A DNA stretch of 64,000 nucleotides. Origin: Phoronis australis (taxonomy: Eukaryota > Animalia > Phoronida). The notes beneath the pieces were generated by a model. That model was not told the origin of the DNA and did not search any database. It worked only from the letters and a program-made list of their open reading frames with translations. The position numbers and the translations under genes were made by a program. The stretch is from assembly GCA_002633005.1 (NCBI GenBank), contig NMRA01000092.1:777116-841115 (forward strand), in the 5' to 3' direction. Of this stretch, positions 7,874 to 62,433 are shown piece after piece; within the stretch, counting starts at the first letter, position 1; the number at the start of each line of letters is the position of its first letter.

Positions 7874-8767
7874 GAAAGACAGGAACAAGTCCAAGACTCC
7901 AGGAACGCACAAGAACATCGCCGTGTCGACAGTGATGAAGAGATTGATGAGGAAGAAAGGCATCCAACAGATGAAGAAGATAAGGAGGACAAGCGCAATG
8001 GTCTTGGTTGCCTTATTATTGTTCTTTTTCGCTCCACCACCGCCACCGAAGTTAGCTTGCGCCTTGTCCATGTCGGCAATTTGCCGCGCGTGCCGCCTGG
8101 CAATCTGAAGTACCCGTATATAGAGCACGAGCAGCACGACGAATGGCACGTAGAAGGAGCACATAGAGGAAGCTATTGCGTAGGCCGGCTTCATGGACGG
8201 CTTACAAAACGGGGTGTCGGGCTGAACGGCAGTGATATAAAAAGACTGCTCGCCCTCAATCTGGTACGCTTCACTTAGGATAGGTCCAAATGAGATTCCT
8301 GCCGCGATAATCCACGCAGTGATAATCATTATCAATGCAACCTTCTTGGTTATGATTTCGTGGTACTGAAATGGTCGCGTGACGGCAATATATCGTTCAA
8401 TAGATATCAAAAGAAGATTATAAATGGAAACAGTTGACAGGCACACGTCAAGACTGAACCACAGCAGGCAGTAATGTCCGAAAGGCCAGACGCCTGAGCC
8501 GAAGTCTTGCACCATGGCAAATGGCATCAAACAAAAACCTACCAGAAAGTCAGTGATGGCAAGATTGATAATGAAATAGTTCGTGATCTTGGTTCGCAAA
8601 GCTTCATACTTTAACACAGCACATATAACGAGTAAGTTACCAAATATGGTGATGACTACCGCGGTGGACAGGATAATCAGTATAAAGTATTTCCAGTCCC
8701 CGAGGTTCACAATTGGCCGGGGATCCCAGCAGTCAGAGCACAGACAATCGCTGGTGTTGTTAGACAT
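7874..8767 (-). CDS. Aminergic class A GPCR (D1-like dopamine / beta-octopamine / H2-like Gs group), coding exon 1 (TM1-TM6, ECL3); spliced product ~345 aa
   Basis: ATG at 8767 (MSNNTS, N-glycosylation sequon); GNxLV, NLAITD, WPFG, D3.32 in SLDV, ERY, TM5 ASSMCSFYVP, CWMPFF; donor TTC|gtaagt after 7874. Confidence 0.92.
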
Positions 8768-26700: not shown

Positions 26701-26799
26701 TAATTCCCTCCGACAGGAGGCGCGTTCCAAAACGAGGCTCACTACGATAACTCTGTTGGCTTATCGGCATAGTTGTATTCCGCGTTGTTCGAACGGCTA

Positions 26800-26900
26800 G
26801 AAAAATATGGACATTCAACTGTCTGTTTTACAATTCCTAAGGACGTTGAGATTCGGAAGCGTTGGGTCGTTGCCATACGCCGCAACACTGGAAAATATGT
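26800..26900 (+). mobile_element. THAP-domain remnant (FTIPKDVEIRKRWVVAIRR), transposon-derived
   Basis: F-x-x-P-K-D...RKRW-x-x-A-I-R-R is the central THAP motif; no intact C2CH set is visible. Confidence 0.6.
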
Positions 26901-27154
26901 ACGTGTAAAATTTATAAATGTTTGCGAAAAGTTAGATCATATTTTGTCGCATCTCGGCTCAGTGCCCGGCGCCGGCCGGGAGCATCGTACCAATGACCGG
27001 AGAATCTTAGGCCAGCCAGGCTGCGTTTTCATGACTACGAGTTGAAACATGATGCATTTTTCTTTCGAAAAAAGACAGGGCCGTCACTCCCTCGAATTTG
27101 GGGCCGAATATCGGCCCTATTCCCCGGTCAAAAATATTGAAAATCACGCGAAAT

Positions 27155-30630: not shown

Positions 30631-31218
30631 TCTGCCCGTCTGGCTAATCTCCCATGTTCTCGCCGTTCGGGAAAGGAAAAGGAAGTCAATCTACTCGTAG
30701 ACTGGGGGTGAGGATGCATAGATAGAATAATGTTTGCAGAGGGACAATCGATCAAAACCAGCCTGGACGTGTGATTAGCCATCACTGTGAGCCAGCCAGT
30801 CGAGATTATTATGGGTTTAGGGTCTGAACTTGCAAGGAAGCTGGATATCCATCTGTTGATGTCGACATGACCGAATGAGCAACAGCCATTAACGAAAAAT
30901 AACCACCAATCGACCCACCCCTAACAGGGTTAATCAACCGAGGCACAATGGGACCAGCGACAACGATATCTCTGGAGGTAAAGAAATCCTTGAACCATTG
31001 ACGTTCAACAGTTAATAATACTGTCAATAAACTGTTGTCACGCATGGAATCATAGTTGAATTCAACTTTTATTTCACAAACTAAGATTCAACATTTTCAA
31101 CAAAAGATGACGTCATCTAATGCTGACATTGCAGCACGTGTTAGAACGCTTGTTGGATTTTACATCAAGTTTTGTAGACGTGTTTATGTAGTGTTCTCAT
31201 ATAAATCAATCGAAAATT

Positions 31219-31963
31219 ATGGCGACTACAAATTCAATTCCGATTCAACAATCAAATGAGTATGGCGGAAATAATTTTTTCAAAGATGTATCCGAAAATC
31301 ATGATGGAGAGCGTTCGCGTGCCAAATGTCGAAGCCAAATTAATTCTTACAGCGGTACGTCAACTCAAATAATCAACGAGAAGTTTCATCATTTAAAGCA
31401 CCATGATCCAAGTGGGCAAACTACTGGCAGGGAAGCCACATTATCCATAAGTGAAGATGGACGGCAGATGACCAAAGTTTTGACTAGTGCAAGGTTAGAC
31501 TGTGGCAAAGAATCGAGTAGCAACCCTACCGAGTTAAAGGAAGGAGCGAATCAGGCACGTTACAAACAAACACAAGTTCACGCTGGTGCGATGAGAACTC
31601 ACAGTCCTCCAGTCAGTAAGAACTTGACATCTTTGCACAACACGCCGAAGTACGGGTACGCAAATGAGCAACCACATCGTCCAGTCACGCTAAGCTTCCC
31701 ACATCTCAACAAACCAGGACAGCCCAATGCTGCAAAGGTACTGGGTGAGGTGAAGTTAGCTTCGGGATCGCAGCCTTTGACTTCTATATGTCTGACGCGT
31801 GTGAACTCTGTAGGTGCAATGCCGGCACCAAAGAGTGGCCAAAAACCTTTGTTCACTTTCAGTCTCGCCAGACCGCCAGCGTCTTACGCACCTAATACTT
31901 TCGCCGCAATACCAGTTACCGGTTTAGAAGACGACGATTCTTCTCCCTGCAATGTCTTACCAG
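31219..31963 (+). CDS. SoxH: SoxH/Sox30-like transcription factor, exon 1 (low-complexity N-terminus)
   Basis: 278-codon ORF with CCAG|gtgagg donor, phase 1, in frame with the HMG exon. Confidence 0.75.
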
Positions 31964-32123
31964 GTGAGGGGCGGCTTTGCAGAGCTGGAAAATGTCTAAC
32001 AAGTAGTGTGCGCTCGACACAATTCCATTTTTCATACCTGGGATTATTGCCATAAGAGTATCACTCTTTTATGGATTTTACTGAACCGGTTTTATGTTTA
32101 TATCAAAAGGTAATTATTTGTAG

Positions 32124-32378
32124 GTACAAATTCCATTTATCGGACGCCAGGTGCCGTTAACATCAACCGAAGCGGTAACGTAAAGCGACCAATGAACGCC
32201 TTCATGGTCTGGGCCCGGATGTATCGGCCACAGCTGGCAGCTCAGTTCCCAAACGCGAACAACGCGGAGATAAGTGTGCGCCTTGGGCAAGTGTGGAACG
32301 ATATGAATAATGACCAGAAGAAACCGTTTTACGAGGAGTCGGAACGAATAAAGAACCGCCACAAAATGGACCATCCTG
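32124..32378 (+). CDS. SoxH: SoxH/Sox30-like, exon 2 (HMG box)
   Basis: [41 protein letters not shown]...KKPFYEE; WAR..RP.LA...P.ANNAEISV is diagnostic of Sox30/SoxH; ttgtag acceptor, CCTG|gtttgc donor. Confidence 0.95.
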
Positions 32379-32487
32379 GTTTGCAACTTAACTGTTTACG
32401 ATGTATTGGTGGTAATTCAAACATGAAAACATGCCATATTGCCACCAAAATATGCAAAACAAAAATATTCTTCATGTGATTAAGATN

Positions 32488-32684
32488 AAGTGTGGAATGA
32501 TATGAATAATGACCAGAAGAAACCGTTTTACGAGGAGTCGGAACGAATAAAGAACCGCCACAAAATGGACCATCCTGGTTTGCAACTTAACTGTTAACGA
32601 TATATTGGTGGTAATTCAAACATGAAAACATGCCATATTGGCACCAAAATTTGCAAAACACAAATATTCTTCATGTGATTAAGA
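32488..32684 (+). other. Duplicate of 32289-32486 immediately after a single N; probable assembly overlap
   Basis: ~197-bp near-identical copy with a few substitutions, separated by n at 32487. Confidence 0.85.
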
Positions 32685-33226
32685 CATCGCTTGGCGGAAT
32701 AAAATTCCCCAAGCATCGCATGTTACTGTGTCGTAAAGTGACTTTTTTGTTCTCTCGATACATGTCGTCTTCGATTGACTTGAAACTTACACACAAGGCA
32801 TTACTCTTTAATAGCTTGAGGCCTCTTATTTTTGTTGATTACAGACAAAAGATGGCGATGTGACGGCCATTTTATAAATTCCTGCTTCGCCTCCTTTGAA
32901 CTATTCTCCTCAAATTTGGTACGCAGACAGATCTCATCAAACGCCCTCTCAAATGTGTTTCTCTCTACGACTCATTGTTCTCTAGTAATTTGACATTTCC
33001 TACTGACTGCTCACCAAGGGGTTGATTTGTTGTGGTATTGTTCAGTTGAGCTTCCTGGGGATCACTCGGGATCTCGTAAGAAGCTACCAAAAATGCACAA
33101 GCCGTTTCTCGCTCTGACTATTTGTTCTCGAATTAGTTCAGATTTACTGACGACTAAGATCGGACGCTGGTGCATTTCTCGGACTCCAGTAGTGCAATTG
33201 TCGTATCAAGGGGGTTCAAGGACAAC

Positions 33227-33470
33227 GCATGCGCGCACCCAGCCTAAAATATAAGGGGGCTCAAAATTATCGATATAGGGACGTTTTACTGAAAAAAAAC
33301 GAAGACTAAAAACAAAACGGGGCCACTAGATTCAGGCCTACGAATCGTGCATCTGCGCCAATTTCCTGTGTCTTTTGTGGCTTTTTGTGTCGTTTACTTG
33401 GATTTTTTTTCACTGAGGCGGACCTTTTTGCCCAATTCGCCAAATTGGGGGGAGGGGGGGCACCCTTTCC
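33227..33470 (+). mobile_element. CATGCGCGCACCCAG MITE family, copy 2 (3' truncated)
   Basis: gcatgcgcgcacccagcc...ggacctttttgccca...ggggg shared with 53212-53458. Confidence 0.6.
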
Positions 33471-34136
33471 TGTCATTTCCTCAATGGACAAGCATGAAAC
33501 TTACACACAGCATGTAACCATAATCTAACCCAGCAACAGCTCAAAGAGAATACTTTTTGGTCGAAATGGGATACAAGATGGAGCTATCATCAGCTACATT
33601 TTCTGACAACTGTTTTTTATTCATAGACTTTCTTGTTGATTAATCCCCGTGGTTATAGTCTTTATCAATTATATCATCACTGTTTAACGATGATGACGAT
33701 GATATTGTCATTTTCAGCGTCATCGGAGGTGTTGGTGACGTCATCGTTCTTAGTTTCGACGTTGTCATGGTCGTCTTTACAAAGCATGACCGTCAGTCGC
33801 CTTGCGGCGTTGTTTGCATTGTCGTTGGTTTCATGTCAGAGACGTGGACAATATTTGCGGCTTTGTAATTGATATCAGTGCATCAGTGTTGTCATCAGCA
33901 TTGATGATGACGTCGTCGTCTTCGTCAATAATTGCCGATGTTTTTAATTCTATCGGCAGCATTGTCGTTAATTGTTTGCTCGACAATATCGTGGTTTTTG
34001 GAGGTCGTGAGAGTTGTCGCCTTTGATTTCGTTGCCATCGTTTTCACAGTCCCCTTTTGTGTTGCTTTCACCAATTGTCGTTCCTTCAGAGCACTTTCAT
34101 ATACCAATGGTTGTGTTTTTGTTACCCGATACTCAG

Positions 34137-34394
34137 GGTGGGTGTACAGACCACAGCCGTCGCGGAAACGCAAGACAGAGCCCTTCGCCAACCAGACTCT
34201 ATGGGCACGCTTTGGCTTCTCATCAGTAGCCAACAGTTCGTCCACGATGTCCAGCACGTCACTGCCCACCAGTACTCAAGCGCCAGCTGCAGTGTCGTCG
34301 GCTCACTCAGTAACTTCCGCTGGAACACCTACCACGGTGACCATGCCACTTGCTGCAGACAACGCCATGCGTGCGGCTCAATCGAGACAATGTG
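34137..34394 (+). CDS. SoxH: SoxH exon 3 (end of HMG: GWVYRPQPSRKRK; S/T-rich region)
   Basis: actcag|GG TGG completes HPGWVY, matching the Sox30 FPGWVYQP-KRK pattern; donor gtcagt, phase 1. Confidence 0.9.
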
Positions 34395-34578
34395 GTCAGT
34401 TTAAAAATTAAAATTTCTCCCTTTGATAAAATTGTGCTCGCGTGTGTTCGTAGCTGATCAAGACATATCTTATTCTCAACACTGCATTGATGACTGACTG
34501 CAGTTCAGTCTCAGTGATCATATTTTTCTAATCGTCATTGAAAATGACGCTAATCAAAGTTCAATTCTTGTTCCTCAG

Positions 34579-43077: not shown

Positions 43078-43350
43078 ATGGTTCACCAAAAGGGATGTTT
43101 AATTTTATTCGCGGCAGTTATCGTCCTGGTTCCGGTAGCGCTAGCAGCCCCGCAGTGCCCACCATGCGATACACGTTCGTGCCCAGCATTTGACAGAAGG
43201 TCGTGCCTACACGGAATGGCCACCGACCGGTGTCGCTGTTGTTTGGGTTGCGCCCGAGGCCTGGGGCAGCTGTGCAGTGCCTCACGGAAGACGCTGGACG
43301 GTGGTCACTACCACGGACAGTGCGGGAATGGAATGGAATGTCGCAAGAGG
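43078..43350 (+). CDS. IGFBP7/KAZALD1-like gene A, exon 1 (signal peptide + IGFBP N-domain)
   Basis: Hydrophobic leader; CPPC...C...DRCRCCLGCARGLGQLC...GQCGNGMEC cysteine pattern; AGG|gtaagt donor, phase 0. Confidence 0.92.
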
Positions 43351-45241
43351 GTAAGTGGAGCATGTCCACACCACCGTGTGCGATAAACACATGTTACCGC
43401 GCTTATCCTAAAACATTGCCTAAAATATTCAACCAGCGTTTTTATGCAGTGGTAAGAATACTGTTTCAACAACATTCACGACCCCACCACAATATTAAGG
43501 CAGTTCTCAGTACGCTATGTCAGAAAACTGTAAAATCGGGCGGGGGGGGGGCGAATGGCGGTACAATCTCATTAGTAACCCCGTGAACGATGCATGTTGT
43601 TGTCCAAAGTTGCCCGTTTTCCTCGGTCCCCAACTTGTTTCCGATCAAGTTGTAAAGCGTGTATGGCGCACGCGGCACGGACGTACTGAGTTTGGTGAGA
43701 CTGATTGTTTAGTAATTAAAACATTAAACATTAAGTATGGGCCATTCCGTAGCGTGCATAGGTTTGGTGGTGCCGAGGCGATTTTTTATGGTATGCCCCT
43801 CTCTCTACTCAAATTCACGGACCCTAGAAATAAGAAAAGTAAAAAAATGAAACGTAAAAGAGGAACTTTATTCAAATTAACTACAAATCAGTCACAATTT
43901 CAAAAGGCCCTTCCTCTCCTGCACGTGCACGTTAATGGGGCTGTGTTAGTGTTACACTAAACCCGTTCTCGCGACTTTGGCCAAAACATACATTGAATGC
44001 GACACAGGCGGTTCGTTCCAGTAGCAACTCTGTTTTAGCCGTTGTGTTACAATTCTCAAGAACGTAACTTGGTGTGACGGAGCAAGAGTTTCTAGTAACT
44101 TTGGGTTGACTCCAGATAAACATTTTGTCCTCACGGCTTTTTGTTAATAAATATTGATATGCTTCACAATATAACATGAAACACTAATTAGGTTATCCAA
44201 ATAAACATCACCGACGCACTCACGCGTCCTCACGCGCACTCACGCTGTGAGCTTCCTAGCAAGTCAACTGGAAAGAAACTTTCAAGGAGGCCTATTTTCT
44301 CCTTTTGTATACCGAAACTGATGTGTATAACAGACCATGTACTTTACTAAACACCGGCCAACGAGGTTGGAAAGGTCACAGGCATTTCGTCTGGGAAAAA
44401 TATTCTCATTCTTTTTAGAATAACACACCGTGTTCTGCGCTGAACGTAAACGTGTCATCCAGTCGTCATGAACTACAAGTGATAGCTGAACACGATTTGT
44501 ATTTCCCTAAATTCCAACGTTGCGTTCTTGTCGTCAGCGACACCCAGCCTACCAATTATTGAAAATTAGAACAATTAAAAAAAGCTCTTAACAATTAAAA
44601 AAAAACAACTATTAACATGAAATCTTAATTTCGGTAGCAGACCCATAGCATAAGTTTTTGGATTGTGAACCTAAAATGATCGTAGAAGGGAAATATATAT
44701 ACTTCTATCTCCGAGTGGAGACTCTGACCAAGTAGGCTTCCAAAAACGAAAATGGACCACCTGCACGCACAATTTCACTATTGATCCAATTTACTTTAAT
44801 ATATGTTGCCAACGTGCTTTGATCTGTGGCGTTGTTGCAACAGATTTTTTACTGAATGGTTGTATAATTTCTAAACACAGAAAAACAAAGTCCGAATGCA
44901 GACGACTGCCGTCGAGCCCAATTATTAAGCCTGGTTACAACACTTGCGAACAGCTACTTCTCCCAAGCTTAGAAAAATGACTTAGAATTTGAATAAGGAA
45001 TTAAAGAGCTTAACTCAGTTTTATACTAGCAAAGGTGGTGAAAATATTTTTTTTTATTTTTTGAACAGATTAAGGGCGCATTGGAACTGTAAATAGCATT
45101 GGTGGTTTATTCTATTTCAGTAAATCGTTAAAATGTACAACACATGAGTGTCGAAAAAGGGACAAGTATTGTGCTTGAACATTTCGAGTCTCTTTCGCAA
45201 TACTGGGGAGTTCTATTGAAAATTCCACGTTCGTTATCTAG

Positions 45242-45398
45242 GACGATTTGGGTGTCGGGTACGGCGACGAATGGTTGTGTTACTGCATATCAAAGCAGGA
45301 GGTGTGTGGCACCGATGGCGTGACGTACGACAATCCCTGTCAGATGAGGAAAGCCGGGAGAACGATTCGCACAGCTCACCAGGGTGCATGCAGACAGG
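45242..45398 (+). CDS. Gene A exon 2 (Kazal domain: CYCISKQEVCGTDGVTYDNPCQM...HQGAC); absent from the ORF track
   Basis: tatctag acceptor, G|gtaggt donor, phase 0-1; canonical VCGTDGxTYxNxC. Confidence 0.92.
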
Positions 45399-45897
45399 GT
45401 AGGTGGCACGTGTTGTGATCTAGCTTAAATAGTTATGCTACATATCTAAGTCGCAAGGTGAGGAAATAATTGAGTGGCCAGACACGAGCACTGGCCAGTT
45501 GCTAGCCATGTACCTGATCCCTTGCATTCAATTCGAACAGAAACGTACACTTGGACACGACTCCCTGAAACAATAAGAATATTAATAATTCTAATTTTCT
45601 TCAACTTTTGTGGAAAGGAAGAAGCTTCTGCCAAAATTGTGCAAAGTGCAAGCGATGTTTTCGTGAAGTATACCTTCCGTTTTAAGTCAGGAGCACAAAA
45701 TTTACCCAAAGTTCGTGTTGAGAGTTCGGCCATTGAACTGGCGTGCATTAAAAAAATAATAATTGTTGTACCAGACGTGCGTAGGCCGTGCATGTCGGCC
45801 ACTTTGCACTGATCGCATGGAACTATTTTTGTGCTTTATTAATATATAGTTAAAACCGAGCTGAGGATCTAGAAACCTGGCTCAAATGTCTAGCAGT

Positions 45898-45974
45898 GTA
45901 GCCCAGTGGGACTCGAACCCACAACCTTGAGTAAAAAAAGGCGGGCATCTATCACACTATGCCACACTGCCTCC
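45898..45974 (-). mobile_element. tRNA-derived SINE head or tRNA pseudogene
   Basis: Minus strand has A-box-like TGGCATAGTG and B-box GGTTCGAGTCC; a T-run disrupts the anticodon arm. Confidence 0.55.
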
Positions 45975-46233
45975 TCTACTGGCGTGCGTTCCGTAGACCT
46001 ATTTTTTGTAATAGAAACAATAACTCGCACAACTTCGCGAGATATCGCCATGTGTTGCAAAGCACTTGATCACACTGGCTTCCTTGGGTAGATTCTTGCG
46101 TCCACTCTGAGGCCTGCACACCGATCTGTTTCTTTGCCATCGCACAAGGTGACCAGAAAGTGATCCGCACAAAATGTGCAAACTGTAGAAAAGAATTGCA
46201 AGGCTACGGAAACGCCCATGTCTCCCAGTTTAA

Positions 46234-47222
46234 TGAGTTCCCACCATGACCCTGTATCTCAAAAAGAATTTTATTAAAACGTTTTAAGAGATTTAATAGC
46301 CTGTTGCTAAGAAACAAGCAAAAATTGAAAAAAATCTGTTATTGGGTTTGTACGTAATGGGTGGAAGGCCGTCTCCGCCGTTGTTGGTTTTACCAGTGCT
46401 ATACTGAGGAGATGTGAGGAAAATCCGCGGAGAACTGCCTTTTCAGACATGAAAAGGTGTTTGTGGAGGCTGTAGTAACAGCAACTTGACTGAGAACGTT
46501 CAAATTTCCTAAATACGTGGAAGTTGCACACAAATGCGCCACACCAGAGTGTGGAATGTCAGTGTGGAACACGCGATTCAGTCGGGAGCCACACTTTGTT
46601 CGGCACATTTCAATCGTGTTTCGACCAAACACAAAAGGGAGTTACGATGAAGGACTCTCCACATTTGCAAATTTTGCAAGTAACGAACAAACTGCTTCCA
46701 TTCGACGGTGAGTGATGCCAGTCCCTCATCCCCGGGCACAGATCGAGTGCTACGACACGTAGGCTTACGCACTATGTCTAGACCGTGCTCATTCCATCAT
46801 GGCAATGGTGAATACGAGTGATCCAGGTTTACCCTGGCCTTTGTCAGTGATTATTAAGTGTCTATTTTGTGAATATTGACCACCCCCTTGGATCAGTTGG
46901 TTGTGGCTCACATGAGTCTGCAGCATTTCTCGTGGTAGTGGGTCAAGTGCATACGGCCTCAAAGTCGACGAAAACTCGCTGTCTGATTTTACTTTAGTGT
47001 GATGCCCGTATCCTCTCTCCTCCATCGCAATTGATTGTCAAGTGACCAAACGTTTTCCACCCATTACATCATTTGGCGGGAAACTTGGAAATAGCTATTT
47101 TTCTTCACAATTAAAAATCGTGACTATTCGGAATAAAAAGTTATTTTGTTAGAGTCTAACGTATTCATTTCATGTTAGCTAACTGAAAACTCAAAAACTA
47201 AGAAAATGCATGTGGGAACTCT
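46234..47222. mobile_element. Decayed Kolobok-like non-autonomous element (TTAA TSD)
   Basis: ttaa|TGAGTTCCCACCATG ... CATGTGGGAACTCT|ttaa; minus-strand LRPYALDPL resembles the KolX N-terminal PYxFEP motif. Confidence 0.6.
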
Positions 47223-47574
47223 TTAAACCTTGCACCGCAAAACATCCGACTTAAGAAAACTCATGAAACTTAATTTTCGCGCTTCTGTCTGTTTAGCACC
47301 ATGAAATACAACACGCTCAACAGCGTAAACCTCAACCAAAACATGTCTTTGCTCCTAGCGTTGAATAAATACCCGTGGCTTGTGACATGATGCCAAAACT
47401 GAGTTATTATTAGTTTATAAGGAATTTTTTTTGAATTTGCTAAAACCATATCATTATAGGTTTTCGTGTCCGCCAATGGCAACGAACGAACCACCCCTTT
47501 TCTACCTGTTTGGTGTCTCACGAAGTAGCCTTCAACACACTACGGTTTTGCTGTTCCGTGTGCTAGAATATTCC

Positions 47575-48168
47575 GCGATCGCCTTACATAAGGTTGACCT
47601 TACCTTGTCAAGAGGTGTCGCGTTAACCTGTGAGGAAGGCGAGAAACGATGCAACGAAGTCAGTGGTTCATCTGCAGAGTGAATGCCACTATGTTGCGGT
47701 GCGTCGTTGTCAGAACTATGAAGCTGCGAGGAAAGCGGTAGACTTCCTCGAGAGCCCGAATTGCTTAGGAAGTGGCTCGCGGAAGTGAAGAATGAAAATT
47801 ACGCTGTTAATAGCAAATATGCGGCCGTGAAACATCTCCGTGTCTGTGGCCGGCATTTCGTCGACAGTGATTTCTCTGACGAATGCCAGCTTACCAAAGA
47901 AATATCCGTACGTTCCGTTGCCTGTGCACGTTCACGGCGCCTCTTTTCTTGATCAGTGTATTACGGTTCGAACTGATAGCCTGTAAAACCTAACGACCCA
48001 CCTGTGAAGTCTTCGTCGGATGAGCAGTCCTCCAAGTCAGGGGATTGCGAGTTGCCACGTTGACGTTTATTATTCTGCGTTCTGTTTCGAAATGAATTAT
48101 TCTCACCCTAACCAATGCTTATATAAAACTGAAACAACATCTGTCTCATTAGATACAAATTGTAATGC
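47575..48168 (+). mobile_element. THAP-encoding transposon remnant, left arm of a ~600-bp inverted pair
   Basis: LPREPELLRKWLAEVKNE...HLRVCGRHF; reverse-complement homolog at 50360-50947. Confidence 0.8.
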
Positions 48169-48920
48169 CTTTGTGGTATTCGTGAATGCAAATGTTTTGA
48201 GAAGACAGCATTGAATAAACCACTGCGTTACCGGTTTCAGATGTAATAAAGGTAATTGACCGGGCACCGAGGTCGCGTGAGCGCATGCTAATTCAGTGTT
48301 TGCTGACAGAAAGCTGTTGTGAAACAATTACTCGATTTTAGATGCTACGGTCACATGTTAGGGGAATCTTTATTTAGAAAAACAAATACGTTATTCAAAT
48401 CACTGTTATTGTACAGCTTTTGCCCAGACGGTTCTGTGGCCCGGAAGCCTGTGAGGGGAACCTGACTTCGCGGCCCCCGACAAGTATATGTAGACTTTCA
48501 GTTTCGTGGCTAATTCACCAAAATAACTACGTCACATTATTTCTTTGGCTCACTTTTTGTGACTGGAGGTTTAGTTTCCAACTTAAAGGCGAAGGCAACC
48601 TTTTTCCATGTCATTTTGAGCTAAAATAAGGTTGGTTGGTTATCCTAGACATATTTTCCACTTAATTACAGCTTTTCGTAATTTTATATATTACTCGTCC
48701 GCTACTCCGGAAGTGACGTTTTAGGAGGCAAGCGTTTCCCGCCACTTGGTTTTGCGTTGACTTTACCTTGCGAATCTGTTCTATTCTACTTTTGTTTTGT
48801 GCTGTTTTTCAACAATTGTCGCCACCACTTTCCATCGACGAGTATTCTGCGGCAAGATAGGTTAGTAGAGAACTCAACTACGTTGGATTTAGGGATTGTT
48901 TAGTGTGTTGTAAGCTGAAA

Positions 48921-49225
48921 ATGGCTGGAGTCGGTGACCCGTATCACAGTGACAGTAGTGTGAGTGACGGAGACCTTTTTCACAGCAGTGGTGACGAGGA
49001 ATTTTTTCACGGACATTCAGTGGGTGGGTACATGTTTGAGCCCGAGTATAACGAGGCAGAGTACGCACAGGCACAGGCAGCTGTTGAGAGAAACGAGGCG
49101 GCTACTGAGGACAGACGTGGTGACACATCTTGGTGCAAATGCACTGTGTGCGTTGTTATGCCTACCTCAATGGAATGCTTGTGCTGTTCAGAGTTCGACG
49201 AGGCCAAGCCACTACTGGACATGGT
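48921..49225 (+). pseudogene. KolX-like 5' fragment (Cys-rich, related to P2X7 ballast domain)
   Basis: GYMFEPEY...SWCKCTVCVVMPTSMECLCCSE matches the WCxCxxCxxM...ExxCCxE signature; truncated at the deletion junction. Confidence 0.75.
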
Positions 49226-50016
49226 TAAGTGGACCTCCGGCATACCACGGACAGAGGAACAACTGTCCCACTTGCCAGAGTGTCCCGCGACACACTCCCA
49301 CTGGATGGTGACCTGAGCACCCAAACTGCTTACATCGTGTCGTGTGACTCCCTCGCCACACACCTGGCACCTTCTAAATAGCTCCAACACTTTAGACAAG
49401 TCCACAATAAACTTATCAAAGTTTGGCTCACCGATCTGTTCACTGGACGACGAACTGTCCTCTTCACTGGGTGTCGAACTGAGCCTGTAATCACTCCCAC
49501 TACTCAATATCGCTGCAGGGCTGCTTAGAGGCTCTGGGCTGGAGAAAACAGCACAGGGCGAATCACTACTGGTTCCAGGAATTGCACGCTCTGGGGTACG
49601 TTCGGAGGCACGGGTGACAGTAGATGAAGTGCCTCCACTGGCTCCAGTCACTGTACTGGCCACAGCTCGCGAGGCTTCTCGCTTCAAATACGCACTTCTC
49701 GAGGGTGGCAACGGGGCACTGCCGGTAATCAACACAGACGGAATGATAACCTTCTTCAGACGTTGTTTCGCAGGGACCTTCATCAGTTCAGCGTACAAAT
49801 CTCTTTCGTAATTGGATGGCAGAAAGTGCTTGCCACACACACGGTAATTCTCCACTGCTTTCGGTACGTTGCGTGGACGGGTAACGCTGCGTTCTTTACA
49901 CGAACGAGCCAAGTACGGCGAAGTGTGTCATCCATCGGAAAGCGATGCAAAGGTACTCCCAAAGCGCGCGTGGGCCGATAATTAGTATATCCTGGTACGC
50001 AGCAACAGTGTGGCAT
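49215..50016 (-). pseudogene. Kolobok transposase N-terminal fragment (THAP + Cys/His domain), frameshifted, DDE core missing
   Basis: MPHCCCVPGY..LHRFP..RRTW / YRVCGKHF...IIPSV; S-rich linker; KFIV...LELFRRCQVCG...WECVAGH..W. Confidence 0.8.
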
Positions 50017-50359
50017 ATTGACTGACTAGTAAATGAAAGCAAACGACGACGGAACTTAACACAACCGAGGTAGAACAATGAGTGACTCGGCAGCTCTCAC
50101 AGTCAGACTATATGAAAAGAAATTGGAGCGAAATGCTTGCCTCCTAAAACGTCACTTCCGGAAGAGCGGACGAGTAATTAATATAATTACGAAAAGCTGT
50201 AATTAAGTGGAAAATATGTCTAGGATAACCAACCAACCTTATTTTAGCTCAAAATGACATGGAAAAAGGTTGCCTTCGCTTTTAAGCTGGCTTAGGCGGC
50301 CGCGACGGGCCTGATCGGTTTCCGAGCCACTGGCTGGGATAGCAAGCGTTTTGTGTGTT

Positions 50360-50947
50360 TGCATTACAAATTGTATCTAATGAGACAGACTTTGTTTCAG
50401 TTTTATAGAAGCATTGGTTAGGATGAGAATAATTCATTTTGAAACAAAGCGCAGAATAATAAACGTCTACATGGCAACTCGCCCGGCGCCAATCCCGACT
50501 TAGTCAAGAGCTCATCCGACGAAGACTTCAAGGGTCTGATCGTTCGGTTTCACAGGCTATCAGTTGGAAGCGGAATACACTGATCAAGAAATATTAGAGA
50601 GGCACCGTGAACATGCACGGATAGTTCTTTGGTAAGCCGAAATTCATCAGAAAAATCACTGTCGACGAAATGCCGGCCACAGACACGGAGATGTTTCACG
50701 GCCTCATACTTGCTATTAACAGTGTACCTTTCATTCTTCACAACCGCGAGCCACTAACTAAGCATTTCGGGCTCTCGAGGAAGTCGAAAAAACGATATAC
50801 CCGCTTTTTTCGCGGGAACGATGCACCGCAATATAGCGGCATTCACTCTGCAGACGAACCACTGACGTAGCTGCGTCGTTTCTCACCTTCCTCACAGGTT
50901 AACGCGACACCTCTCGGCAAGATGAGGTCGACCGTATAAGAGGCGAT
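50360..50947 (-). mobile_element. THAP-encoding transposon remnant, right arm of the inverted pair
   Basis: KNERYTVNSKYEAVKHLRVCGRHFVDSDFSDE, paralogous to the ORF at 47761-47952. Confidence 0.8.
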
Positions 50948-52063
50948 GTGGATATAGACCGACTAAGACGGTAAAAAAAGACTAATTAAATCGCGTGGCA
51001 TTCTCTTTTAAGAAGTGGTCTGTAGGCCCGGGAAGGACAGACAGTTTGTAACGAGTTCTTCATTCCTAGCTCATATGAGTTGTCAGTTCTGTCCAAATCC
51101 AGAAACCACACCTATTTTGAATGAGGAACAATTTGAGACCAATTTCATAACCGTATAAGGGACCTAAATCAAAACTTGATTTTCTACGCAAAGAGCGGGT
51201 TTAATGTCTCTTCAAAGACTGTTCATTAATATTTTGAAGATCCCGTAAATTGTCGTTGGTTTATTGGAGATCGACGATAGATATAATTGAAATCGAATAA
51301 CGGTTTCACGGTTTTATCACTAGTGTTTTAATATCTCGTCATCTGGTTCTCGTCGTTTTCTGCATGTTGATAAACAAACTCAGAAGAAAACACTGATACA
51401 GTTTAGGAAAGACCTGTGTTTAGATAGAGCATCACATTTGCTGAGAGAATATGATTTTCATTTACTTCTCTGCCAAGTTCTATCGCCATTGTGATAGCTT
51501 GTCACAAACGCAATACCTCTTCAATTAGTGAAAGCATTTTGAAATCAGTCGCGTAACTTTTGGCCAAATTACAAAACGTTGCGCGTTCTGCAGACCACCA
51601 AAGAAGTGCGCCTTTTTCTGGAAACCTCAGTGACACCAAACAATATAATTTGTGGAGACACGCTTATCGATCAGGGAGGCTTAGAAACGCTTGCCAGACC
51701 CATAATAACAAACACCTCAACCAAACATAGTCTTATAAACACTCATACAGACGCTAAATTTTAAGCAAAAACACACAATATCCGGTCAAATTAATACGAA
51801 CCCATAATTGACTTCTTTCTTCATAATAAGAATGAACAAAATCTAGTGTGTGTTGAATAGTTTTCGGAAGCATGATAAATATGTGGACACATATGTGGCA
51901 TTGAATTATAGTGGCAACAGGATCAGAGGATACACAAGTCAAGTAGCGCTGTCAGCGACGGCAGTTTTTGGTCCGTCACAGTATTTATGAGCACTGATAA
52001 AGAGTGTACCACGAGAAGGAAATGTTTCATTATCTTATGTGAACTCAAACATTCATGTTATAG

Positions 52064-52204
52064 CTCCAGTCATCATAAGTCCACCAAAGAACGTGAAGAC
52101 TGCTGCTGGATCTTGGATCATGATGACGTGTGAAACCAAGGGCTATCCTCCACCATCCGTCACTTGGGAGTACCGACATGGCGCCACCAGAAGGTCACTT
52201 CCAG
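52064..52204 (+). CDS. Gene A exon 3 (Ig I-set domain, first half)
   Basis: APVIISPPKNV...MTCETKGYPPPSVTW...LPG; tag acceptor, G|gtaaag donor, phase 1-1. Confidence 0.9.
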
Positions 52205-52574
52205 GTAAAGTTTGGCACCTACCTTATCAAACGAACAACTGGCAATGATCCTAGCAACGCCCGTGAAGTATCAATGAACTTCAATCGGGGCCTATTAGCT
52301 ACACGTACTCGTCATATCATAGCCACCATTCTAAGGATGGCACTGTATGCAGTGTTCGAGCTTCAACAAATAAATGTGCTGGCCGCCCGCCGGTCCAGTT
52401 ACTTGAATATGTGACCACATCCATGTAGGGCCTACAAGTGAAAGTTTACAGGCCCACTTGCAAATCCACTGGCCCTGGGCCACCGGACCAGCGTGTATTT
52501 CGAACGTTCACTGTATGTAGCTTCAGCGAAAACAAATAAGGTTATTTAAATTAAAACTCGAAATTCGTTTCCAG

Positions 52575-52751
52575 GAGGTGACAGGCACATAGCCGCAAAC
52601 TCTCGTGGAGGTCCAGGAAAGTACGGGACTACAGGATTCCTTCAGATAATGGATCTTCAAGCCGAACACAGCGGTGACTATGTGTGTGTCGCGCGTAATC
52701 GCCATGGATCGACCGACGCATCTGCAAGGCTACTGATTACCAGGGATGAAG
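52575..52751 (+). CDS. Gene A exon 4 (Ig domain, second half)
   Basis: GDRHIAANSRGGPGKYGTTGFLQI...GDYVCVARNRHG; RGGP is characteristic of the IGFBP7/KAZALD1 Ig domain; GAAG|gtaaac donor, phase 1, no stop. Confidence 0.9.
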
Positions 52752-53211
52752 GTAAACGTGTGGCGTATGTGCATTTTACATCAAATAAGTTTTTTGTTTC
52801 AACCAATCAAATTTTACCACATGGATACTTGTGTATTACATGATGTGAGAAAACTTGTATTTGGCTAGACCTGTTGACGTCATTGCAAAAATTGTGTAGA
52901 TCTGGGTGTGATTTTCTAGTGTTTCGTAGACTGAATAGAAATTCTTAATTTTTTCAATTTATTTCTCATTGGATGATTTCGGAGTGAATTGGTTTCAATC
53001 TGACATTGCCTCATCAGAAACTAACAAAGAAATGTCACTACCGTTAGATGCTACCACTGTTAATTTCCCAGTTATTAACTTCGAATGTTTGTTGGCAATT
53101 GGATATAAATAAAACTACGAACGAGCTTACCTTTGTAACCATCAACTCTCAGTTGGAGGAAAGGACCGAGGGATAGAGGTGCCTCTTGGGATTCTTAGGC
53201 TCGGACCCAGA

Positions 53212-53458
53212 CATGCGCGCACCCAGCCTTCAATATGGGGGTGCTCGAATTTCTGTCGATGTGGACCTTTTCCTGACAAAATATCGGCAGGACTAAAAAA
53301 ACGAGGAACTATCTTAATACCTGTAAACTGTGCGTCATTTTAGTAGACTTTTGCCTCGTTTCCTTAGAGTTTTTGTTTCTTTGAGGTGGACCTTTTTGCC
53401 CACTTCTCCAAATGGGGGGGGCTCGTTGGAGCCTCCCGAGCCCCTGGGTACGCGCATG
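53212..53458 (+). mobile_element. CATGCGCGCACCCAG MITE family, copy 3 (both ends present)
   Basis: catgcgcgcacccag ... ctgggtacgcgcatg TIRs. Confidence 0.7.
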
Positions 53459-53691
53459 CTAGAGTCCAGACTTCCCTGCTAGGTCACATTTACAATTTAC
53501 ATTGCAGTAACGAAGAAATCTCGAGGGGGCCGTACGTTTGCCCACTGTCAGGCCCTTGGACAAATTCGTGAATCTGCAGCTGCCGAATAGCACTGCTTAA
53601 ATAATTTGGAGACATTCAGGGGAGCATCTATCACACTAGTTGTGCTGTCCTAGTGAAATGACTAATGAAACCCATGACGTCATCGTTTCAG

Positions 53692-53991
53692 AGCCCATAT
53701 TGCCCACCTGGCCTGCACACATCTCAGACAATTCAGGTGCCCTCCAGTCAGAATATCGGCCGATGGTGGCAAACTCAGACCATAACCCGGAGCGGCAGTC
53801 CAAACCAACGGCCAAATACACTATGCACTATGTCAACTCACTTCCGTTTGAACAATTTGTGGAGTTGTTTGGTGGCGTTGTCGATAACTGTTCTGTCTGC
53901 GCAGCTGCAACATGGAGTTTGCGGCCATTTTCAGATTCAACGGACTTGCACGACAAAATGATACGATTCGTGGACTCTCTTCCTTCCTACG
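53692..53991 (+). CDS. Linker + OHCU decarboxylase (URAD)-like domain, first half; probable exon 5 of gene A
   Basis: VNSLPFEQFVELFGGVVDNCSVCAAATWSLRPFSD...FVDSLP aligns by eye to URAD VNSMD..EFVDVFGN..E.CPLIAAAVWSQRPFSD; cgtttcag|AG acceptor, phase 1, with ACTAAT ~30 nt upstream; G|gttagt donor. Confidence 0.82.
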
Positions 53992-54368
53992 GTTAGTATT
54001 CTGAAATAAATAAAGACACTATACACTAAAAGCTGCAAAGGATTCAAAATTAGATTGGAACCTATGAGAAATTAATTTGGCCTACAGGATCACCCAAATG
54101 AATTTCTGAAAATAATTAAAATATCTGATGGTGAGGTGTCACATGCCTGTTGAAGCCAATAAAAATCCATAATCAATGAATACTCTTGGAATGAGATACG
54201 CGAACATAGCAACTTTTGTCGGTATTGGTAGACCATGGAACAATTTCAAATATCGTCCAGTACTCTGCAGAAAGTTGGTTTACTTATACCCCCAATGGAT
54301 GGCAATATAGTTAAATCGGTTACAGACAGAACGCGTTCCCTGGGAGAAACTAACTTTTGATTTACACC

Positions 54369-54902
54369 TGTCACGTTTTCCCCGGGTGTGGGTGAGCGCA
54401 GGTGGTTACCGACCGGTGGTAATAGCTTTCGGAGCGACGATAGACCGAGGACTGTCTCGAGTTAATCACTTTATTAATCTCGACCGTACGTTCACAAGCC
54501 TACTCAAACAAAACGTCCGACGTAATGTCTGTTTTATGCTCCAGCCAGTGCTGCGAAGCCTTGACTAGTGATAAACTTCTGAGACACTTTCAGCAACTCA
54601 ACTGTAACTGTAATTCTCTTTAACTTTAACGGATTTTTTCTTTTTAAGTTTAATTGATTTTCAACTAACTTTACTGACGGGTCACAAACCTGTGCGTGGG
54701 TATTTATAGTCACGTAGGCCTACAATATTCTAGAACCTTTCACCAATTTAACCACACATTCTAGAACTTTCCAGAATCAACCCAATCATTCTCCAAATAT
54801 ATACTAGGCTCTAGCATGTTCCAGATTACATTGATCACTTATATGCTAGAATCTTCTAGAATGTTCCAAACTATTCTTTGGTATACAAATGATATCATCA
54901 CA
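54369..54902 (-). mobile_element. Candidate solo LTR (534 bp)
   Basis: Minus strand begins TGTGATG and ends GTGACA; TTCTAGAA-rich U3-like part, then TATAAATA, then AATAAA; no clean TSD. Confidence 0.55.
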
Positions 54903-56247
54903 GTCCTGACCTCAGGGGTCATGCCAATCAATAACTATCTGCTAAAATACACACAGAACAATAGAACAGAATAATTAAACTAAGAACACTGTCAGTCCAC
55001 TCCTGACAAGACCATTTGATTTCAACTTGTCCCTTAGTCTGATGGTCTTGCAACTGATAGCTCGTTATATGTTCGGCCTACATTACAAACGAATTTTGTA
55101 GAGCCTAGCCTCATGTAATAAAGGTCTGCCAGATTTCGTCAAGTCCTCAAACAATTTGATTGTATTTTGACTAAGGAACTATTTGCGACCAGCTTCGTAA
55201 TTACGCTAGATGGTCTAAATCAATCTTTGACGAAAGGGGAGTTTACCCGGTTGAAGAGACACGCTGGGTTTTAAGGTCGAAAAACGCATTTTAGGAATTG
55301 TTGGACGGGATTGACTTTATGAAGATATTAGCTTTGAGCAGAGCTATAAAGTAACAAAATTCGTTACTATGTTTTTTCTAATTTTACATAGGCCTACTTT
55401 TCAGTAAAATTATCTCCCAATTAAGGCGTGGGGTTTTAGCTTCGTCAAGAGTTGAGTGTTTGGCAGTAATGAATATAACTTGCCCGCATTTTGAGAACCA
55501 GTTTTCCCCATTGAATAACATGCATCAAACTGCTATCAGTTCTCGTCGATAATGCCCCTTTAAATAAAATTCTTTCTGTCATTCGAATGTGTACGGCTGA
55601 ACACCAATGTCACTTTTTAGATGAAATAACGCCTAAAATAAGCGGTGTCGCAGTCAATAATAAGAGATAAATCTATATCTAAGATGACACTGTTAAACAC
55701 ACGTTGGGGTGTTATTGCAGCTATAAAGCCAACAAGGCTCTGCGTTCAAAGCAGAAGGTTTGCTATGCACTGGTCTGAAACTGTCGGGGCAACAGCATTC
55801 ATGTGTTTTAGCTGAAGTTTTCATTTCCGAATGGCCAATTCACATAAGTGTAAAAAACAACTATTTTACTGGTTTGGTTACAAAGCATTTGCCCGCAGGA
55901 AATGACTTCGTCTAGGTTTTTATAAGTTTTGGCATTCTAAGACTCACTTGGCCAACAAGTAATTGTAAGAAAGCAAGCGATTTTCCCTAGTAATGGGAAG
56001 TACTGTTTTTATATACAAAGATTTCTTCAAACGCAGGCTATGTATATTTAATTGACTTCATAAAACCATTGGATTGGGTGTTATTTTTCAAATATTGTAA
56101 AATAGTTTAAACCCGTTTAACACAGGTCTCTATTAAAAAGATTCATTCACTTAGTCACCTGATGCGTTCCCTGGCGTGAGAAACAGAAGCAAAAGATGAT
56201 GCTTGGTGAAGTTCGTAATTTAATTGTCTTTCTTTCGTTCGTCGCAG

Positions 56248-56552
56248 GGCAAGAGGGGATTCTACGTTTGTTCTCAGGACTGAAAGCGCTATCTCAGCCC
56301 CAGTTCCTGTGGAGTGAAAATGAGCGCCAGGCTTTACAGGAGAGAGATGCCAGATATAGGAGCCGGTTTAATTTCCCGCTCATCCTGGACAATTCTCCCC
56401 AGTCCGGTTTCCAATCGCTGCTCGACCAGGCCGACAGCCGAATGAGAGCCAGTCCTCAAGAGGAACTGAAGCGAAGCCTAGCGACCGTCAGGGCAATCAT
56501 AACCTCTCGAATATGCCAAATGATTGACGACAAGAACAATTTCAAAGCATGA
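56248..56552 (+). CDS. URAD-like domain, second half; probable last exon of gene A
   Basis: GQEGILR...ERQAL...YRSRFNFPLIL...SPQEELKRSLATVRAI..SRI; gtcgcag acceptor, phase 1; TGA at 56550-56552. Confidence 0.85.
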
Positions 56553-56823
56553 CCGTCCCTATACTACTAAGAACATATTTCCGTCATATGACAAAGAAAG
56601 AGAAAGTAGTAACCTCTAAGCAACGTTATTTTTGCTAAAGCACAACGGGCGTTGAACGTCAGCTAGGCCTACTTGCGTCAACTTTTCTAGTATTTTTATG
56701 AGCGCTGCCCCAGAAATCGCTTTCGCACTATATCCAGGTTCTCATTCCCTTTCATACACTCACTAGTAAGACCGAGCTCAGAGGAGTAGAGGACGCATTT
56801 GTGATATGCTTGTCTGCCAGTAA

Positions 56824-56884
56824 GGCCAGGATTCGATCCCGGGTCTCCGAAAAGGGAGCCCGGAGCTCTAACCAATGAGCCTCA
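56824..56884 (-). mobile_element. tRNA-derived SINE head
   Basis: Minus strand GGCTCATTGGTTAGAGC (A box/D arm) ... GGATCGAATCC (B-box-like). Confidence 0.55.
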
Positions 56885-57405
56885 ATGTTGTTTAGTCGGC
56901 GAGCAATGTTTGGGAGTGGCTTCGAAATCGAATAGAAAGTATGAGACAAGTTTAGTATGTGTCTTATAATCTAATTTAGAGAAAATAATTACCGTGCAAG
57001 ATGGTGTACTAGACGCCAGTTTAGACAATCACGTTTCCTTCAATGTTGGTACCGATCTGAAGAATTTGGTGTCAGTTAACAAAAACAGACACCACTTGGA
57101 AGAATGTGCTTGGGCCATCATTCAATACTCCTGACATATCAGTCGAGTTCTTGGCTACGGCTTATCAGGGCGCGGGATTGTGAAAACACTCCTCCTCCAT
57201 GTCCCAAAACAGTGACTGCAAACGAAAGCGTAAAGATGGCTTTACGATGAGCTTTGGCCATTTGCAATTTATATCAACGATATTAGGAGAACTACAAAAG
57301 CACGTGACTTGACAAAGTACAGGTGATGCTGTCGTCAACAATGAGCTGTTTTCTTATTCCTAACATCGGACTGCCAAGACACATAAACAAAACCACACCA
57401 GTTAT

Positions 57406-60887: not shown

Positions 60888-61160
60888 ATGGCCATCAAAT
60901 TGTTGTGCCTCGCCATCGCGGCGACTTGTTGGTTGTTCAGTGTTGTCAGCTCACAAAGGTTCCCAGCCGACTGTCCAAAGTGTAGAGCCGATCTCTGTCC
61001 GCCGATCAAGGAGGACTCGTGTGGGGCAGGAATGACATTGGACAAGTGTGGTTGTTGTAATGTGTGTGCCCGTGGCCACGGGGAGCTGTGTACTCACCCC
61101 AAGGTCAAGTCCAGTTTCCACTACGGCCAATGTGGTGCTGGGCTGGAGTGCAGAGTGAGG
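60888..61160 (+). CDS. IGFBP7/KAZALD1-like gene B, exon 1 (signal peptide + IGFBP N-domain)
   Basis: Leader peptide; DKCGCCNVCARGHGELC...YGQCGAGLEC; AGG|gtaagt donor. Confidence 0.93.
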
Positions 61161-62264
61161 GTAAGTAAAGACGGTGTGTTGATGCTTTTTGCTAACTAAC
61201 TTGGCGTATTGCTCGATATCAAGATCACGCGCCATAAACTAATTAAAAAATAGAATTAACAATTCCTGAAGTTCATTGCGTAGCGTGGTTTATATTTGGT
61301 GGAGACCTTTGGTACAAGGATCACCCCTCACCAGGTGTTTAGTATTTTACAATGTCATGTCCTGGCTGTGTACAATAGTCAGTCGTTTCTGTGTGATATT
61401 GTGGCCGCAGTGTTTTTGAAGAAATACCACTGAATTATGTTAATGTTTGGTTCGCAACTGAAGCCTGGGAAATGAATGAAATATGACTTCTGTCTTTAGC
61501 CAACTTACACACTGGCTCACTGTCACTGTTTGGATTTTTTATTTTCCTTTTAGTCAGCGAGACGGGCATTGTCTATATACGAGAGTGATTTAGTATCCAA
61601 TATAAGCAAATATACTATATCTATAAAATCTTTGATATAAGTGCACGACGCCATTTGCTGAAACACAGCATGCTGTCCCGGCATGCATGCCGCTTCGGAT
61701 AATTAATGCGACCTGTCTTTCTGTGATGTGTTTGTGTTCATTTGCTATGCGTAATCAGGGGTACGACGCCTGCCAGCATTCCGTTGTGAACGAAATTGTT
61801 TTTGTAATGGTCACTTCATCGTTTAAAGTCTATTCAGCATCATCTTCAACTCTATTTTTAGAGCGGATTTTTAAGCATTCTTTCATGCGGCGACTTTCAA
61901 GTCTCTATATAAAAACGTCAAAACGTTCTTAATTTGCTGGATCGAACTATGAATGGTCTATAAAGAATACTTGTGTTACTGATACTTCTGCGACTAGATT
62001 CGCCGGTGCAAATCCAATTTTTTGTTTTGACTGAAAATAGCTTCAAACTCCACGGAAATTGTGTTTTCTTGAAGGTATCTGGCACACGGCATTTCGTGAT
62101 GTCATTTTACGGGTTGCTGCCTCATTTTTATCAGAGAGCTAACTCGAGAATTGTGAACGTAAACAATCCTTGCATGTAAAAAAAGATAATCCATGGATGT
62201 GACCATAATTTTAAAATGAGTGGCAGAGAACAACACTGCATCTGTTGCTCTATTTTATTTTCAG

Positions 62265-62433
62265 ACTGACCTGCGGGACACCACCAAGCTAGAGTCAATC
62301 TGTTACTGCATGAAGGATGGTTTGGTGTGTGGCACCGACGGTAACACGTACCCCAACGTGTGTCAGCTGATGTATGCCTCCGTGGTTGGTGGAAAAGAGA
62401 TTAAAGTAGCGAAAAAAGGCATCTGCAAAAGTG
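62265..62433 (+). CDS. Gene B exon 2 (Kazal domain); gene continues beyond the window
   Basis: ttttcag acceptor; CYCMKDGLVCGTDGNTYPNVCQL...KGIC; G|gtaaga donor, phase 1. Confidence 0.92.

Follow-up and report, generated by a model that had tools for sequence, protein, structure and literature searches.

The phoronid Phoronis australis carries, in a 64,000-nucleotide stretch of contig NMRA01000092.1 (forward-strand positions 777,116 to 841,115, referred to as the window), a gene whose protein joins a Kazald-type chain to a domain from urate catabolism. The gene lies on the + strand at window positions 43078-56552, and its 450 residues run from a hydrophobic leader through IGFBP, Kazal and Ig domains into a 44-residue linker and an OHCU decarboxylase (URAD)-like domain. 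The fused mRNA is, with hardly any doubt, the main product of the gene. The favored explanation, to which a probability of roughly 0.5 is assigned, is that the gene encodes a secreted Kazald protein with a catalytically dead, dimer-forming URAD tail that would pair two chains. Evidence for the transcript and the fusion comes from this single species.

A fused transcript of six exons

Six exons are joined via GT-AG sites with intron phases 0, 1, 1, 1 and 1 into a single frame of 1353 nucleotides whose sole stop is located at the end. The original prediction, which was made from the sequence without database searches, had arrived at this same model, and its coordinates, splice sites, phases and lengths were reproduced exactly. 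The domains it expected (IGFBP, Kazal, I-set, and OHCU_decarbox) were all recovered when Pfam was scanned exon by exon, with every call above its Pfam cut-off. The coding part of exon 1 (43078..43350) harbors the start codon, a leader of about residues 1-23 that is likely a signal peptide, and the IGFBP domain at residues 27-88 (Pfam IGFBP, E 6.9e-8; 33.4 bits versus a 28-bit cut-off). The Kazal domain is encoded by exon 2 (45242..45398; Kazal_2, E 7.2e-9), and the Ig (I-set) domain is divided between exon 3 (52064..52204, first half; Ig_3, E 1e-7, and I-set, E 4e-7) and exon 4 (52575..52751, second half; I-set, E 2.4e-5). Exon 4 matches the IGFBP7 chain 9zhh_A over its full length (E 2.7e-7), contains no stop, and ends in a phase-1 donor. 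It is followed by the fusion intron, intron 4 (52752..53691), which has a length of 940 nucleotides, is of phase 1, and contains a read-through stop at 52841-52843 and an AATAAA at 53108.

Exon 5 opens with the polar linker (53692..53822, residues 250-293), which is open in frame, and continues with the N-terminal half of the URAD-like domain (53823..53991; OHCU_decarbox profile 1-49, E 1.1e-5). Against PDB sequences, exon 5 matches zebrafish URAD 2o70 (E 1.2e-11), and in-frame ATGs are found at 53763 and 53823. Intron 5 (53992..56247) occupies the ancestral animal URAD intron site in phase 1 of a Gly codon. The coding part of exon 6 (56248..56552) specifies the degenerate C-terminal part of the URAD-like domain and the stop (OHCU_decarbox profile 89-154, E 6.2e-8; PDB sequences 3o7h, a Klebsiella URAD, and 5uou, E 4e-4). 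It includes a collapsed active-site segment at 56268..56309, where the alignments place 14 residues against 30 in URADs.

The raw RNA reads stem from three runs of one study (X2, X3, and X4), of which about 18-19% each was read, with alignment at 90% and 98% likeness. X1 consists of assembled contigs from a different study whose RNA status is a guess. No indexed run that matches the window is recorded as RNA, and the RNA evidence is what the aligned reads themselves show. At 98% likeness, introns 1-5 are crossed by 18, 29, 32, 40, and 30 junction reads in X4, by 3, 5, 3, 3, and 3 in X3, and by 2, 2, 0, 2, and 3 in X2. The junction between the Ig exon and the URAD exon (52751-53692), for which the original prediction had proposed an RNA check, is thereby confirmed in all three runs and by the X1 contigs. 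In X4 it collects the most reads of the five (40, the others 18-32), with 31 distinct read starts and a shorter side of up to 71 bases. All junction reads point the same way, which is the orientation that a standard stranded library would give for RNA from the + strand. The X1 contigs span the joints between exons 2 and 3 and between exons 4 and 5, at equal depth, and are probably one 447-base contig.

Sense depth in X4 is flat across the six exons at 34.7-42.3 per exonic base (37.9 on exon 5; about 40 per coding base on exon 1, which is inflated by the 5′ untranslated region). Transcription continues into a 3′ untranslated region (56553..56981, with an approximate end; depth 27.8 in the bin 56512-56981). 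In two bins set exactly on intron 4, the depth is 0.25 and 0.65, repeat-derived reads included, compared to about 37 on the two flanking exons. Less than about 2% of exon depth is left for transcripts that run on to the stop at 52843 or to the AATAAA, and no pile-ups of read starts or ends are listed near 52843 or within exon 5. Since intron 4 is nearly empty and the depth of exon 5 is matched by reads spliced from exon 4, the fused mRNA is regarded as the main product. The URAD capture onto an IGFBP-Kazal-Ig scaffold that had been proposed is thus supported, with both parts in one transcript. Two other outcomes had been considered with it, namely that transcripts from the Ig exon end at 52843 or that the URAD-like exons have their own transcription start. 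Neither holds in these libraries, given the intron 4 depth and the 40 junction reads beside an exon 5 depth of about 38.

The same data bear on the view that a Kazald gene and a decaying URAD gene are two adjacent genes that are linked by occasional read-through splicing. Each half does resemble a complete ancestral gene, and intron 4 contains both a stop and an AATAAA. The fusion junction, however, has the deepest coverage of any junction in X4 and occurs in X2, X3, X4, and the X1 contigs, while sense reads are almost absent from intron 4, so that this view is already largely refuted and its remaining probability is very small. Junction reads total 149 in X4, 17 in X3, and 9 in X2 at similar run size, which makes X4 about 9-fold or more deeper, and the transcript level of the gene varies between samples. 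Among the coding differences listed in the reads, at least seven were counted, five of them silent and none in the URAD-like domain, which are too few to weigh.

A Kazald-type chain with a degenerate URAD domain

The N-terminal part has the IGFBP, Kazal, Ig order by which invertebrate Kazald proteins are recognized in PMC12955574. By eye, its second Ig exon also contains the family motif of the alignments in that paper (supplement files 7 and 8). These alignments are trimmed to the three domains and cannot reveal tails. Four exons encode the three Kazald domains, and two more follow in the same mRNA, so the chain does not end after the Ig domain. Kazald proteins, defined by their domain order, are described as distributed across bilaterians and absent from cnidarians and sponges, with a single copy in most invertebrates, and the non-chordate “IGFBP7” genes are argued to be Kazald genes (PMC12955574). 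The three-domain layout seen here is indicative of a bilaterian. Because of this assignment, the N-terminal part looks better named Kazald than chordate IGFBP7: the predicted IGFBP-Kazal-Ig scaffold stands, but its IGFBP7-like label gives way to Kazald.

Hydropathy in 19-residue windows exceeds 1.6 solely at starts from residues 1-12, and past residue 30 no window rises above 1.25. By this profile, the leader is likely a signal peptide and the protein likely lacks a membrane anchor. Kazald-family members have been described as secreted (PMC7555818), and the fused protein is probably secreted as well. In decapods, binding of insulin-like peptides has been discussed for members of this family (PMC5618481); for the phoronid protein, family likeness is the sole basis on which a link to insulin/IGF signaling may be drawn.

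The URAD-like domain was traced by its intron and by its relatives. The site and phase of intron 5 (phase 1, Gly59 codon) are identical in a canonical URAD locus recovered from metagenome contigs (L001). A HMMER search with exon 5 against 1.84 billion cluster representatives returned 128 proteins, all of which were listed, and the best of them are ordinary URADs with 40-53% identity. The next-exon motif is missing from 110 of the 128 matches, and 56 of those 110 stop aligning at residues 350-351, which is the intron site, as would be expected of matches read out from this one exon in genomic sequence. An ancestral animal URAD intron has been kept, and the source was therefore a genomic animal URAD gene. 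A retrocopy or a bacterial gene as the source is argued against by the common intron site and by the matches that end there. The linker matches nothing that was found (no Pfam match and no convincing match among the 128 URAD-type proteins), and we infer that it is former untranslated sequence.

At L001:1610-1670, an apparent further intron precedes the conserved Tyr of the C-terminal part; exon 6 of the phoronid gene has no such intron. No second URAD-like piece was found within the 64-kb window. A metagenome scan for animal URAD loci adjoining Kazald gave one locus from 124 candidate stretches, which is 1.7 kb long, has no Kazald match, and cannot test linkage. The idea that Kazald/IGFBP7 and URAD (PRHOXNB) are long-standing ParaHox neighbors is unsupported, with no homeobox match among the long open reading frames scanned in the window. 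The cluster in Ptychodera has been described as not flanked by PRHOXNB (PMC3698058), and vertebrate Kazalds reside with Tlx/Lbx/Fgf8 (PMC12955574).

For the active site, the domain was aligned with 15 full-length URADs, and zebrafish numbering was applied via the gap-free match of the homolog P0031 to 2o70. In URAD, one conserved His and one conserved Gln are described as catalytic in a urate review (PMC13751858). In the phoronid protein, Phe358 (56271-56273) is found at the position of the catalytic His (zebrafish His67), which is a His in 11 of the 15 homologs. We take the two residues of the review to be H67 and Q88, and E87 presumably has a role as well. Residues that are conserved among the 15 and changed or deleted here comprise S84 and E87 (15/15 each), P68 and D69 (14/15 each), and Q88 (13/15); R124 (12/15), E153 (14/15), and A123 are also changed or deleted. 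After R65, 14 residues stand for 30. This 16-residue deletion removes the substrate segment Ser84-Glu87-Gln88, and the segment that remains contains no Glu. No insertion or deletion at 56268..56309 is listed in the RNA reads. Exon 6 encodes no His at all, so the loss of the catalytic His does not depend on gap placement.

The frame around this site is retained: F115, P118, R138, E146, I157, and R161 (each 15/15) are kept together with R65 and L70. Identity to the 15 URADs (with their identity among themselves in parentheses) falls from 42% (39%) in the N-terminal half through 34% (47%) in the site region to 23% (43%) in the C-terminal part. The chain ends in FKA, without a tripeptide that resembles a peroxisomal targeting signal type 1 (PTS1). 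By the pattern used, 7 of the 15 homologs have a PTS1-like end, and the TKL end of zebrafish URAD has been described as a weak PTS1 (PMC8919083). The URAD part looks like a pseudoenzyme, and the tail is very probably devoid of decarboxylase activity. That it is a still-active OHCU decarboxylase, either extracellular or as a cytosolic isoform from ATG 53763 or 53823, has only a slight chance of being right. Both ATGs are in frame, and the homologs without the His may yet be enzymes. The equivalents of Ser84, Glu87, and Gln88 are, however, changed or deleted, exon 6 has no His, and junction reads that equal the exon 5 depth leave no room for a major separate start.

In a tree of 16 URAD rows, the domain is unplaced on a long branch (1.86 versus a median of 0.73); by path, its nearest row is Patiria miniata (P0037), without support. 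A structural model of exon 6 alone has a mean predicted local distance difference test (pLDDT) of 80, with four helices and a low-confidence collapsed segment. In Foldseek, the top 10 rows for this model are all URAD-family chains (probability 0.99-1.0, E 0.007-0.14, none at E 0.001 or better), a result to be read with the model having been built on a URAD alignment. When the ESM Atlas was searched (clusters of at least 50), exon 6 brought up nothing but unrelated helical clusters, and its recognition score was low. The clusters found with the exon 5 piece were of the OHCU_decarbox kind, scored below 0.9, and were in no case grouped with IGFBP. The frame is open to the ancestral length. In a neutral simulation with 500 runs per level, 33 runs were stop-free at 70% identity and 16 at 60%; the simulation comprises substitutions only, starts from the present sequence, and ignores indels and the date of the fusion. 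It appears quite probable that the tail has been kept by selection.

Proposed dimerization and its alternatives

Zebrafish Urad is a homodimer that buries 2300 Å2 per monomer, with Cys25 and Cys66 at the interface (PMC5445154). Cys316 (53889-53891), located in the undrifted N-terminal half, aligns with zebrafish Cys25. The retention of this cysteine and the undrifted N-terminal half favor a dimer-forming tail. Taken on its own, dimerization as the job of the tail has a chance that is even at best. Of the two functions that the original prediction had put forward, URAD-type dimerization is the stronger idea and binding of purine metabolites the weaker one, because the catalytic and substrate-binding residues are lost.

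The sequence of events may have been as follows. Two Kazald genes would have lain in tandem, with a genomic URAD gene on the same strand downstream of one of them. Splicing from a donor that closes the Ig exon to an acceptor ahead of the URAD start would have turned former untranslated sequence into the 44-residue linker. Out of the peroxisome or cytosol, the URAD domain would then have lost its active site and targeting tail and kept its helical frame. The likely inactive URAD domain would stay folded and probably pair two chains, and the protein would then have two arms for binding growth-factor partners, insulin-like or other.

The second of the tandem genes is a Kazald paralog on the + strand (60888..62433, continuing past the window end at 64000), 4.3 kb downstream of the fused gene. 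Exon 1 (60888-61160) encodes a leader and an IGFBP domain (Pfam E 1.7e-9) and is 38% identical to exon 1 of the fused gene; exon 2 (62265-62433) encodes a Kazal domain (Kazal_2, E 4.5e-9). Its first two intron phases, 0 and 1, are those of the fused gene. This paralog could do the ancestral job and thus lends itself to a different explanation, in which the tail is tolerated as a passenger. Chance would have fixed the fusion in a Kazald copy that was dispensable, and the tail would be kept only because its misfolding would block secretion, or else be slowly decaying or clipped off. Among the 128 URAD-type matches, no relative with the fusion was found, and selection against misfolding alone can keep core residues. 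However, an early stop in the last exon, or the stop and AATAAA of intron 4, would shed the tail, and the intron 4 route is scarcely used. The N-terminal half is also undrifted relative to true URADs, whereas the active site has drifted. The passenger explanation is accordingly considered rather unlikely.

A similarly low probability is given to a tail that acts as a repurposed, transthyretin-like pseudoenzyme, in which the collapsed site would bind a small molecule, a matrix component, or a receptor and so localize or tune the Kazald part. There is a precedent in the same pathway, in which transthyretin arose when a duplicated enzyme was altered at its active site and took up the transport of hormones (PMC13751858). 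The changes in the phoronid domain cluster at the active site, and its long branch fits remodeling as well as decay. The lining of the substrate pocket is deleted, however, which makes old-style binding of OHCU, allantoin, or a purine unlikely, and any new pocket is hypothetical, the structural model covering the exon 6 piece. In a broader form, the tail would be the URAD counterpart of transthyretin: exported, noncatalytic, kept across an animal clade as a dimerizing or targeting module, and marking a new Kazald subfamily in insulin-like or TGF-beta signaling. This is a tentative proposal that is less likely to be right than wrong.

Several points weigh against the dimerizing, secreted pseudoenzyme that is favored here. 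At the RNA level, a single study with three runs supplied all raw reads, the reads are too short to prove that six exons lie on one molecule, and an isoform confined to another tissue could still exist. Translation, secretion, folding, dimerization, and ligand binding of the fused protein are all predicted. At the interface, zebrafish Cys66 is a Leu here, and the deletion begins directly after it and could disturb the contact; the conserved N-terminal half may reflect the structural core alone. The catalytic His is not invariant, as 4 of the 15 full-length URADs have Tyr or Leu at this position and keep Ser84 and Glu87. The His change alone is therefore weak evidence, and the deletion carries the argument for a dead enzyme. 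No ortholog of the fusion was found in the homolog searches, which is a weak negative. How much IGF binding matters in this subgroup is disputed (PMC5618481). Kazald ligands also extend beyond insulin-like peptides, TGFBR1 having been reported as a binding partner of human Kazald1 (PMC12486400).

The URADs with Tyr or Leu in place of the His are P0037 (Patiria miniata, XP_038067026.1), P0001, P0107, and P0128. Inactive or altered URADs may be commoner than assumed.

Surroundings and comparison with known systems

Intron 2 harbors a 3.4-kb element (47578-50947) with several long inverted-repeat arms of 122-176 nucleotides (86-93%). It carries pieces of THAP in both orientations and, at 48861-49313, a frame with weak likeness to P2RX7_C, and it attracts many reads that stem from related copies. 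It is likely a DNA transposon. A weak THAP-like fragment at 26773-27042 (+; E 0.015) is probably a transposon relic. At 31192-34408 (+), an HMG-box exon (32114-32476, Pfam 1.6e-21) with long open frames on both sides has the look of a Sox gene, perhaps SoxH/Sox30-like. A Rhodopsin-family G protein-coupled receptor is encoded at 7862-8800 (-; 7tm_1, E 7e-56), and by eye its last helix appears to lie in a further exon at 1571-1801 (-), which has no Pfam match.

Within the searches made, the Kazald-URAD architecture is undescribed, in keeping with the original prediction, which knew it from no described family. BLAST of the spliced protein found no Kazald-part match in the 128 HMMER proteins, although a relative with the fusion may be concealed in a cluster that a different protein represents. 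Searches of word-indexed protein collections for longer relatives, with exon 4, exon 5, and a two-sequence IGFBP alignment as queries, gave no match and are uninformative, since a many-member domain also went unmatched. No literature that joins IGFBP, Kazal, or Kazald with OHCU decarboxylase, URAD, or PRHOXNB was found among the papers listed by a search that had most subscription journals outside its range. The main text of the Kazald paper (PMC12955574) does not mention OHCU or URAD, and the urate review (PMC13751858) does not mention IGFBP.

Pfam on 17 of the 128 proteins revealed one other fusion. RefSeq proteins of two seadragon species have a THAP and P-element helix-turn-helix region joined to an intact-looking URAD (P0106 and P0129; XP_061522060.1 and XP_061613972.1), which is either another animal URAD fusion or a common annotation merge.

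The phoronid gene represents an RNA-backed capture of a housekeeping enzyme into a likely secreted, signaling-type protein in which the steps are still legible: the common intron, the recruited linker, the lost targeting tail, the collapsed site, and the kept frame. The urate pathway has already given rise to transthyretin and to a repurposed skin uricase in reptiles (bioRxiv 10.1101/2023.06.02.543418), and a third enzyme would join them, this time via domain capture. For specialists on Kazald proteins and the urate pathway, it would supply a small pseudoenzyme and a natural setting in which to see what an appended C-terminal domain does to Kazald ligand binding. If the fusion is limited to one species and neutral, it would be a valid new architecture of modest weight.

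The fused protein resembles the Kazald family (KAZALD1-4; invertebrate “IGFBP7/IGFBP-rP1”) in the order of its IGFBP, Kazal, and Ig domains on four exons. Known members end soon after the Ig domain (239 residues in abalone, PMC7555818; 304 in human Kazald1, PMC12486400), whereas the fused protein continues for 201 residues, and two tandem copies are present here versus one in most invertebrates (PMC12955574). With OHCU decarboxylase (URAD/PRHOXNB; PF09349; zebrafish 2O70), it shares sequence, a predicted helical fold, the intron site, structural invariants, and the interface Cys25; it differs in the replaced catalytic His, the 16-residue deletion, the missing PTS1-like end, and the placement behind a likely signal peptide.

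The nearest parallel in history is the path from HIU hydrolase to transthyretin, in which an enzyme of the same three-step urate pathway was duplicated and inactivated (PMC13751858); export for a hormone-related job would be the counterpart in the phoronid protein. Transthyretin stands alone and uses the old active site as its hormone pocket, whereas here an enzyme was added to an existing secreted scaffold. URAD is also known from multidomain chains, such as the Urad-Urah allantoin synthase of plants, diatoms, and bacteria (PMC13751858) and the bacterial allantoicase and carbamoylase fusions (NCBIfam PRK13797 and PRK13799). These known URAD fusions unite enzymes inside the cell, in allantoin synthases two active steps of one pathway, whereas the phoronid gene unites a degenerate URAD with an unrelated extracellular protein.

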